A stretch of 64,000 nucleotides of DNA from Minisyncoccia bacterium (GTDB taxonomy: Bacteria; Patescibacteriota; Minisyncoccia; Phycocordibacterales; UBA9973): contig JBDHUR010000003.1 of the NCBI GenBank assembly GCA_039809265.1, forward strand, positions 15,274 to 79,273. The letters are read 5' to 3'. Under the pieces are notes generated by a model. It was not told the DNA's origin and made no database searches. It was given only the letters and a program-made list of their open reading frames with translations. Shown in pieces: positions 53,152-53,439 of the stretch (the stretch's first letter is position 1; every line of letters begins with the position of its first letter). The translations under genes were made by a program, and so were the position numbers.

Positions 53152-53439
53152 TTATTTTTTAATTCTCCACGGACTTCCTGGAGTTTTTAATTTATCTATT
53201 AATTCAGTAAATTCTTTATTTATAGTATGGCTGTCTTTAAGTGATTTAAGTTGCACTATTATTTTAGGAGTACTTCCAAGTGTGGATTTTTTAATAAAAT
53301 TAACTACATATTCTTCTTCTCCATCTCTTTGAATTACAGTTTGTTGTTTTAACCATTCTTCTGAAAATTCAATCATTGAAGATTTATCTTCTAGATTTTG
53401 CAACAACTTACCTTTTAGTTTTCCTGGTTCGCTTTCCAT
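53152..53439 (-). CDS. small AT-rich hypothetical protein inserted between atpG and atpD
   Basis: 95 aa ORF, 4 nt after the atpG stop and 1 nt before the atpD start. GC content visibly lower than flanking atp genes. Confidence 0.4.

Follow-up and report, generated by a model that had tools for sequence, protein, structure and literature searches.

Why should a small, AT-rich open reading frame lie between atpG and atpD, in the middle of an operon that encodes an F-type ATP synthase? This question is raised by a stretch of 64,000 nucleotides from a Minisyncoccia bacterium, hereafter the window, whose minus strand carries a complete F-type ATP-synthase operon (Table 1). The reading frame encodes 95 amino acids, and we refer to it as ORF95; a second small gene, ORF113, occupies the junction between atpA and atpG. 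An earlier note on this DNA, made from the sequence alone, described ORF95 by its gaps of 4 nt and 1 nt to the neighboring genes, its low GC content and the first residues of its protein, and was right in all of these details. It also took both reading frames to be insertions, and suggested that they mark a hotspot for small genes or encode lineage-specific accessory proteins of F1.

Table 1. Features of the ATP-synthase operon and the ORF95 locus, in coordinates of the window and in the direction of transcription
Feature	Positions	Strand	Basis or remark
atpB	57484-58386	minus	
atpE	57159-57395	minus	
atpF	56593-57084	minus	
atpH, short	56213-56593	minus	
atpA	54702-56210	minus	
ORF113, between atpA and atpG	54354-54695	minus	second inserted gene, unrelated to ORF95
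atpG (F1 gamma), upstream flank of ORF95	53444-54349	minus	Pfam ATP-synt, E 1e-84
Segment missing in L013, L014 and L015	53161-53443	minus	BLAST boundaries, junction sequences, gene tables
Spacer from atpG stop to ORF95 start, 4 nt (ATTT)	53440-53443	minus	sequence
ORF95 CDS, 95 aa	53152-53439	minus	ORF listing; ATG at 53439, stop at 53152
KLKGKLL motif, ORF95 codons 7-13	53401-53421	minus	consensus S-x-L-K/R-G-K-L-L; low-confidence N-terminus
Predicted globular domain, ORF95 codons 26-95	53155-53364	minus	AlphaFold2, pLDDT 69-88; IQRD and KTPGSPW motifs
Spacer from ORF95 stop to atpD start, 1 nt	53151	minus	sequence; atpD ATG at 53150
atpD (F1 beta), downstream flank of ORF95	51786-53150	minus	Pfam ATP-synt_ab, ATP-synt_ab_N
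Two-allele hypervariable patch, atpD 5' end (beta N-terminal barrel)	52960-53124	minus	starts 28 nt downstream of ORF95
atpC	51344-51784	minus	

Position and expression of ORF95

The tight spacing of ORF95 is a feature of its relatives as well. In homologous loci the spacer ahead of the family gene is also 4-6 nt long, and at locus L001, where the family gene follows atpF, the two junctions (TAA-ATTT-ATG and TAA-T-ATG) are identical to those of ORF95 in the window. We found no terminators within the atp operon and no excess of promoter-like sites there over shuffled sequence, and the ORF95 locus has no match to an Rfam RNA family. Given the 4-nt and 1-nt gaps and the lack of a promoter or terminator of its own, co-transcription and coupled translation are the most likely mode of expression. 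ORF95 would be transcribed together with the rest of the operon and translated by termination and reinitiation, a coupling that would leave the expression of atpD intact.

Two other features of the operon can be recorded here. Directly after atpC, a 244-aa ORF (50553-51287, minus strand) has no match in Pfam, NCBIfam or PHROGs, and it is also present in strains that lack ORF95. The delta subunit (OSCP) has 126 aa and covers positions 56-172 of the Pfam OSCP model, with about 55 N-terminal positions missing. We considered whether ORF95 or ORF113 might stand in for the missing part of delta, and rejected this idea because relatives without either ORF have an equally short delta.

Base composition

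ORF95 has a GC content of 0.278 and a GC content at third codon positions (GC3) of 0.135, the lowest GC3 among the window's 64 non-overlapping ORFs, whose median is 0.36. The corresponding values are 0.445 and 0.467 for atpG, and 0.475 and 0.429 for atpD. It might seem natural to read such a composition as proof of recent horizontal transfer. We rejected this argument, because every homologue examined has a higher AT content than its flanks, whatever the GC content of the host. The GC3 of the family gene, compared with that of its two flanks, is 0.24 versus 0.40 and 0.46 in L004, 0.15 versus 0.38 and 0.33 in L105, 0.43 versus 0.64 and 0.69 in L107, and 0.51 versus 0.70 and 0.76 in L106. The low GC3 of ORF95 is therefore not evidence of a recent foreign origin.

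Other parts of the window have their own peculiarities. A run of very low GC3 (15283-21567, plus strand) encodes a ThiF-like protein, an unknown protein of 491 aa, a nitroreductase-family protein and a 7TM histidine kinase; it may be a peptide-modification cluster or some other acquired gene cluster. A polymorphic-toxin-like set (46205-47923, plus strand) includes a 212-aa protein with a C-terminal Tox-REase-7 toxin domain, followed by a low-GC HEAT-repeat protein, which may be an immunity protein, and then by an SprB/YD-repeat fragment.

A conserved family of small proteins

An exhaustive HMMER search of 1.8 billion representative proteins found 27 homologues of ORF95 at E<=1e-3; a word-indexed search with ORF95 returned only an identical copy and one relative with 52% identity. 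The hosts of these homologues span GC contents from 0.31 to 0.58, and the family is therefore conserved at the level of protein. Between lineages, the dN/dS of ORF95 ranges from 0.22 to 0.60, with dS saturated, and since it stays below 1, positive selection is not apparent at this resolution. The protein evolves fast: between the related loci L010 and L105, dN is 0.56 in the family ORF, compared with 0.12 in atpG and 0.008 in atpD.

We found no significant match to ORF95 or its family in Pfam, NCBIfam, PHROGs or PADLOC, and a sequence search of the PDB with the family profile found nothing. A DUF5932 match (E 0.008, below the cutoff) was dropped, as it occurs in only 1 of the 28 members. Our literature search found no description of either ORF95 or ORF113.

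These observations bear on the simplest alternative, namely that ORF95 is a chance reading frame in an unusually long, AT-rich spacer between atpG and atpD. The very low GC content of ORF95 would fit this idea, as would the fact that one NCBI record (P0001) annotates only a 74-aa version. However, 27 homologues in hosts of such different composition, motifs that are kept at the protein level, dN/dS below 1 and a predicted foldable domain all speak against it, and conservation essentially excludes it. ORF95 is a genuine protein-coding gene of a small-protein family that has not been described before. The earlier note had proposed that its interpretation would fall if the ORF lacked conservation or a coding signal in relatives, and ORF95 withstands this test. 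The 95-aa start is supported over the 74-aa start because the N-terminal KLKGKLL motif is kept in homologues. The family merits a model of its own, and annotations should use the 95-aa start in place of the 74-aa one.

Motif and predicted domain

The family alignment begins with the S-x-L-K/R-G-K-L-L motif, of which each member has 1-5 N-terminal copies. Two conserved blocks follow, (S)EEWLK..x.IQRDGG.EF.V. and the C-terminal LKTPGSPW.(I/L)K(E/K). Only D39 and W91 are invariant across the alignment, and ORF95 has no catalytic signature.

We modeled ORF95 with AlphaFold2, using the family alignment as input, and obtained a moderately confident model with a mean pLDDT of 75.6. Residues 1-20 have a pLDDT of about 50, and the N-terminus is probably disordered. 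Residues 26-95 are predicted to fold into a compact domain that starts with a short helix, continues with four strands and a second helix, and closes with one more strand. A search with this fold against the PDB gave weak matches to domain I of EF-P, the N-domain of eIF5A and the N-domain of CarD, all at E>=0.1. The best viral matches were DUF1653-like phage proteins (E 2.7e-3), and Foldseek TM values were about 0.3-0.57 across the small-barrel matches. Because these matches are too weak, we left them out of the assignment of function. A stray Tudor match (E 0.0096) was seen in one family member.

A clue to the N-terminal motif comes from L106, where a Ser/Thr kinase gene (10806-11912) lies beside the family member P0035. 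The low-complexity C-terminal tail of this kinase contains GLRGSLLKK and SKLRGKLVKR. The occurrence of S-x-L-R-G-x-L-L in the tail of a neighboring kinase speaks for a docking peptide that the two proteins share, and members of the kinase module may use it for docking or as a phospho-acceptor. The family defines a new domain with a putative short docking motif, which can now be tested. From the model and the alignment, the ORF95 protein would consist of a flexible N-terminal docking peptide and a small beta-barrel domain that binds a partner.

Variation among closely related strains

We compared the window with seven related contigs, six of which were identified through ORF113 and one, L002, through ORF95; all comparison sequences are metagenomic contigs, and many are short. 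Four contigs (L012, L016, L017 and L002), which are 98.4-98.9% identical to the window, contain ORF95 with zero nucleotide differences. It is absent from three independent assemblies that are 96.3-96.5% identical to the window, namely L013 (a 309-kb MAG contig), L014 and L015. In these, the TAA of atpG is followed by a 21-nt spacer, CAGTTTTAATAAAAAATTATT, and then by the ATG of atpD. Since both states of the junction occur in several independent assemblies, an assembly artefact is unlikely. The exact ORF95 protein occurs on 7 contigs, compared with at least 16 for ORF113.

Differences between strains are strongly clustered: patches with 5-37 differences per 100 nt are separated by long stretches of identical sequence. 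The ORF95 indel falls within one of these divergent patches, of about 1.2 kb (about 54140-52960). The patch includes the 5' end of atpD, where one 100-nt bin has 37 differences both in L012, which has ORF95, and in L013-15, which lack it. The two atpD 5' alleles differ by many amino-acid changes, and over the remainder of atpD the difference is at most 3%. In L012, ORF95 is joined to the atpD 5' allele that is otherwise that of the ORF95-less strains. ORF95 and the beta allele are thus not linked, and a putative recombination breakpoint lies within 28 nt of the ORF95 stop codon.

It could be argued that the zero diversity of ORF95 and ORF113 proves a recent sweep. However, this is not decisive, because tracts of more than 1 kb elsewhere in the operon are also identical. 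As to how ORF95 comes and goes, the most likely route, judged from these comparisons, would be homologous recombination via the conserved flanks, since we found no mobility gene, no terminal inverted or direct repeats and no target duplication, and the indel lies within a divergent patch in otherwise identical DNA.

The same data weigh on the idea that ORF95 propagates itself, as a transposon, a MITE or a free-standing gene of the homing-endonuclease kind that targets the atpG–atpD junction. Such an element would explain why ORF95 is present or absent between conserved genes, why its copies in all carriers are identical and why highly divergent patches lie beside the insertion point. However, ORF95 has no nuclease or transposase motif and no match to such a family, its predicted beta-barrel of about 70 aa has only D39 and W91 as invariant residues, and the clades of its family track genomic context (see below), which indicates that movement is rare. 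In the light of these points, and given the lack of repeats or target duplication, we rejected this reading as extremely unlikely.

Genomic contexts of ORF95 relatives

A neighbor-joining tree divides the family into three clades, each of which matches a genomic context. This match points to long residence in each context rather than to frequent movement.

In the first clade, the family gene lies between atpG and atpD in four lineages, represented by the window, P0003 (L003-6), P0005 (L010/11) and P0006 (L105). P0002, which is 52-55% identical to ORF95, belongs to this clade and directly follows atpF, and P0004, another member, has no atpD after it. In total, 5 of the 6 closest family members with known context are found in atp operons, at two different junctions. 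The family is nonetheless missing from many atp operons. The nearest species representatives, L019 and L020 (a Minisyncoccia MAG), have no family member between atpG and atpD, where their spacers are 33-36 nt. Nor do six further representatives of the CPR (Patescibacteria) with complete atp operons, whose spacers at this junction are at most about 80 nt. Among the 80 species-representative loci that matched best, no atp operon contains a family member. A pattern search of species-representative genomes, which is sensitive only to members of the LKTPGSPW type, likewise found no relative.

The earlier note spoke of an insertion. As a recent event this is not borne out, because the four lineages in which the same junction is filled share only about 55-58% identity in their atpG proteins, and loss in some strains is therefore equally possible. 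Identity of atpG is about 55-58% throughout the ORF95-bearing lineages and their nearest representatives (54-56% for L019 and L020), so that an ancient presence with losses and repeated acquisition are indistinguishable.

The second clade is associated with fusA. P0023 lies exactly between rpsG and fusA, and P0012-like copies are directly upstream of fusA. P0010, also of this clade, adjoins a small downstream ORF that we judged by eye to be HicB-like, with no Pfam match. One fusA-linked copy, at about 4423-4707 of L100, has an in-frame TAG between motif and domain (…KLRGTFIS*IRSNP…). Either this copy is decaying or its translation begins at a downstream start. Upstream of fusA, two lineages (L107 8300-8362 and L100 4704-4828) share a conserved intergenic sequence with a promoter-like TTGCAT-17-TACATT, a GC hairpin (ACGCCTTCGGGCGT) and a run of T just before the fusA start. 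L107 also contains a ComEC-type gene, at a locus unrelated to the window.

Members of the third clade have long N-terminal repeat arrays. P0011 and P0035 belong to a module, reminiscent of a mobile element, that consists of a TrwB/HerA-like ATPase, a Replic_Relax protein, the family member, a VWA_4 protein, a protein of about 470 aa and a Ser/Thr kinase. In addition, a 1289-aa protein without any Pfam domain (L102 3342-7211) contains two or more copies of a domain of the ORF95 type, and one of these copies ends ...LKDPNSAWKMKKE. The domain therefore serves also as a module in giant proteins.

The third clade, in particular, raises the possibility that ORF95 belongs to a conflict-related family, involved in defence or counter-defence or acting as a small binder of the effector or immunity type. 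Essential, highly expressed operons would then be a safe harbor, in which deletions are costly and expression is guaranteed. The kinase in the P0035/P0011 module matches defence-kinase models, QatB- and TatD-like genes are near, the kinase tail shares the family's motif, and toxin-antitoxin genes adjoin other family members. The strain-variable presence of ORF95, its fast evolution relative to the flanking genes (dN 0.56 versus 0.008-0.12) and its weak fold likeness to small phage proteins point in the same direction. However, the family has no match in PADLOC or PHROGs, and we found no member in a collection of viral contigs by pattern search, nor in phage and plasmid record collections by tblastn. 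PADLOC and Pfam gave no toxin-antitoxin match for ORF95, which is not part of a two-gene type II module. No partner gene is co-inserted with it in the atp operon, where its direct neighbors are atpG and atpD, and its dN/dS shows no positive selection at this resolution. On balance, we think a role in conflict unlikely.

ORF113 and other genes in atp junctions

The earlier note had called the two inserted ORFs of the window unrelated in sequence, and a comparison with hhalign agrees (probability 0.1%). ORF113 is identical in protein sequence on at least 16 contigs, and has four relatives at 41-46% identity; its model is confidently all-beta and has no match in the PDB. It is nucleotide-identical in all seven strain contigs, including those that are 96% identical to the window, and it lies in a tract of 575 nt without any difference (54140-54714), the flanks of which have 2-11 differences per 100 nt. 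The note had also suggested looking for co-occurrence of the two ORFs across genomes. We found none outside this species: in L010, which has a homologue of ORF95, atpA directly abuts atpG, and one homologue of ORF113 adjoins a Fic gene outside any atp operon.

Other atp junctions contain still other genes. In L004, a Cys-rich ORF (2-349) ends 1 nt before atpG, and in L021 a gene for a cyclophilin-type lipoprotein (7377-8213) lies between atpD and atpC. Together with ORF113 and the strain-variable ORF95, these cases show that atp junctions in these bacteria accept varied and unrelated genes, in line with the idea of the operon as a hotspot for small genes.

A possible role in the ATP synthase

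The position of ORF95 suggests that it might be a lineage-specific accessory protein or regulator of the F1Fo ATP synthase, which is kept in the operon so as to be produced together with gamma and beta. In one form of this hypothesis, ORF95 would be a dispensable brake or assembly helper whose N-terminal peptide docks onto F1, loosely like IF1, zeta or AtpTheta. The strongest argument for such a role is the concentration of the closest family members in atp operons, at two junctions. It is strengthened by the atpG–atpD junction being filled, under purifying selection, in four lineages whose atpG genes have diverged so far, by P0002 at another atp junction, and by the tight 4-nt and 1-nt spacing. 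The predicted layout of the ORF95 protein, with a disordered N-terminus and a small globular domain, may also resemble that of known inhibitor proteins. Finally, a hypervariable patch of the beta N-terminal barrel is encoded right beside ORF95.

Against this, neither the strains with about 96% identity to the window nor the nearest species have ORF95, so that the constant presence expected of an F1Fo subunit is not observed (L013-15, L019, L020 and the six CPR representatives lack it). Neither ORF95 nor its family resembles in sequence any ATP-synthase subunit (alpha, beta, gamma, delta/OSCP, epsilon, a, b or c), the operon-encoded helpers AtpI and AtpZ, or any inhibitor family. ATP-synthase models from Pfam and NCBIfam, searched at E<=1, gave for ORF95 only a meaningless match to V-ATPase A (10.5 bits, where the cutoff is 780), and for the 28 family members no match. 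The model of ORF95 is a beta-barrel and not of the helical type of inhibitor, and L012 pairs ORF95 with the beta allele of ORF95-less strains, so that the gene is not linked to a particular beta allele. Moreover, sister clades have the same motif and domain before fusA and in the module that resembles a mobile element, and a cistron that sits between essential and coupled neighbors stays there even if it has no functional tie to them. The proposal of the earlier note that ORF95 is a lineage-specific F1 accessory is thus weakened by its dispensability among strains, by its absence from the nearest representatives and by these sister clades, and we regard a role specific to the ATP synthase as possible though somewhat unlikely.

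A broader hypothesis would accommodate the sister clades. The family might consist of new small docking proteins that are wired to different NTPase machines, to F1 beta in the atp clade and to EF-G in the fusA clade, as dispensable brakes or regulators; such proteins could, for example, have a role in dormancy in host-dependent Patescibacteria. We consider this improbable, but if it were true, ORF95 would be a previously unknown regulator of ATP synthase that is unrelated to IF1, zeta, epsilon and AtpTheta.

ORF95 as an accessory cistron

We are highly confident that ORF95 is a real and dispensable accessory cistron of an undescribed family, which varies between strains and is embedded in the atp operon without bringing its own signals. 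A more specific interpretation, to which we give about an even chance of being correct, is that it is a promoter-less, translationally coupled accessory or passenger cistron that strains acquire or lose by recombination via the conserved flanks. ORF95 would then move by homologous recombination through highly conserved flanking genes in the manner of minimal mobile elements, which behave in this way in naturally transformable bacteria. Its protein would bind, or act as an adaptor for, a target that is not specific to the ATP synthase, since the sister clades lie before fusA or in the module with relaxase-like, VWA and kinase genes. We favor a passenger cistron with an adaptor function over an ATP-synthase-specific role because the family is embedded in two core operons as well as in a module resembling a mobile element. 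It is important to consider, however, that the presence of 5 of the 6 closest members in atp operons is hard to explain by chance, and could reflect a tie to the ATP synthase.

Few gene arrays in bacteria are as conserved as the atp and str operons, and the ORF95 family is found as a tightly coupled extra cistron in both, with one copy that comes and goes between near-identical strains. Core operons of these reduced genomes can thus carry exchangeable accessory genes. If the atp clade acts on F1, it would represent a new kind of ATP-synthase regulator; if it does not, such accessory genes would be using essential operons as platforms for expression and as handles for recombination.

Comparison with known systems

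In its general fold class, the predicted C-terminal domain of ORF95 is like SH3-, KOW- and Tudor-like barrels and DUF1653-like proteins. However, the IQRD and KTPGSPW motifs are specific to the ORF95 family, whose members have no profile match to DUF1653 or SH3/KOW at E<=0.1.

Like the small regulators of ATP synthases (the epsilon C-terminal domain, zeta/DUF1476, IF1, AtpTheta and AtpI/AtpZ), ORF95 is small and dispensable and appears to combine a flexible end with a compact domain, and like AtpI/AtpZ it is encoded in the atp operon. Unlike AtpI/AtpZ, it is not a membrane protein. It has no sequence similarity, in Pfam or the PDB, to zeta, IF1, AtpTheta or the epsilon C-terminal domain, and its predicted beta-barrel contrasts with their helical bundles or hairpins. 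The existence of paralogous clades outside atp operons also sets ORF95 apart from these regulators.

Free-standing homing endonuclease genes, such as the seg and mob genes of phage T4, are similarly small, polymorphic and located between conserved genes, with divergent patches beside them. ORF95 differs in having no nuclease motif and no phage context, and the congruence of clades with contexts in its family speaks against active homing.

PMC3787668 describes the concept of minimal mobile elements (Saunders & Snyder 2002; Snyder et al. 2007), in which variable genes lie between conserved flanks and are exchanged by recombination. As in these elements, content at the ORF95 site differs between the closest relatives within the bounds of the same conserved genes, the variable DNA has an atypical composition (GC3 of 0.135, compared with 0.43-0.47 in the flanks), mobility genes and terminal repeats are lacking, and the flanks are mosaic. 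Unlike minimal mobile elements, which lie between independent genes, ORF95 is a single small cistron that fits with gaps of 4 nt and 1 nt inside a coupled, essential operon, and the junction that it occupies is filled in distant lineages, which indicates long-term residence.
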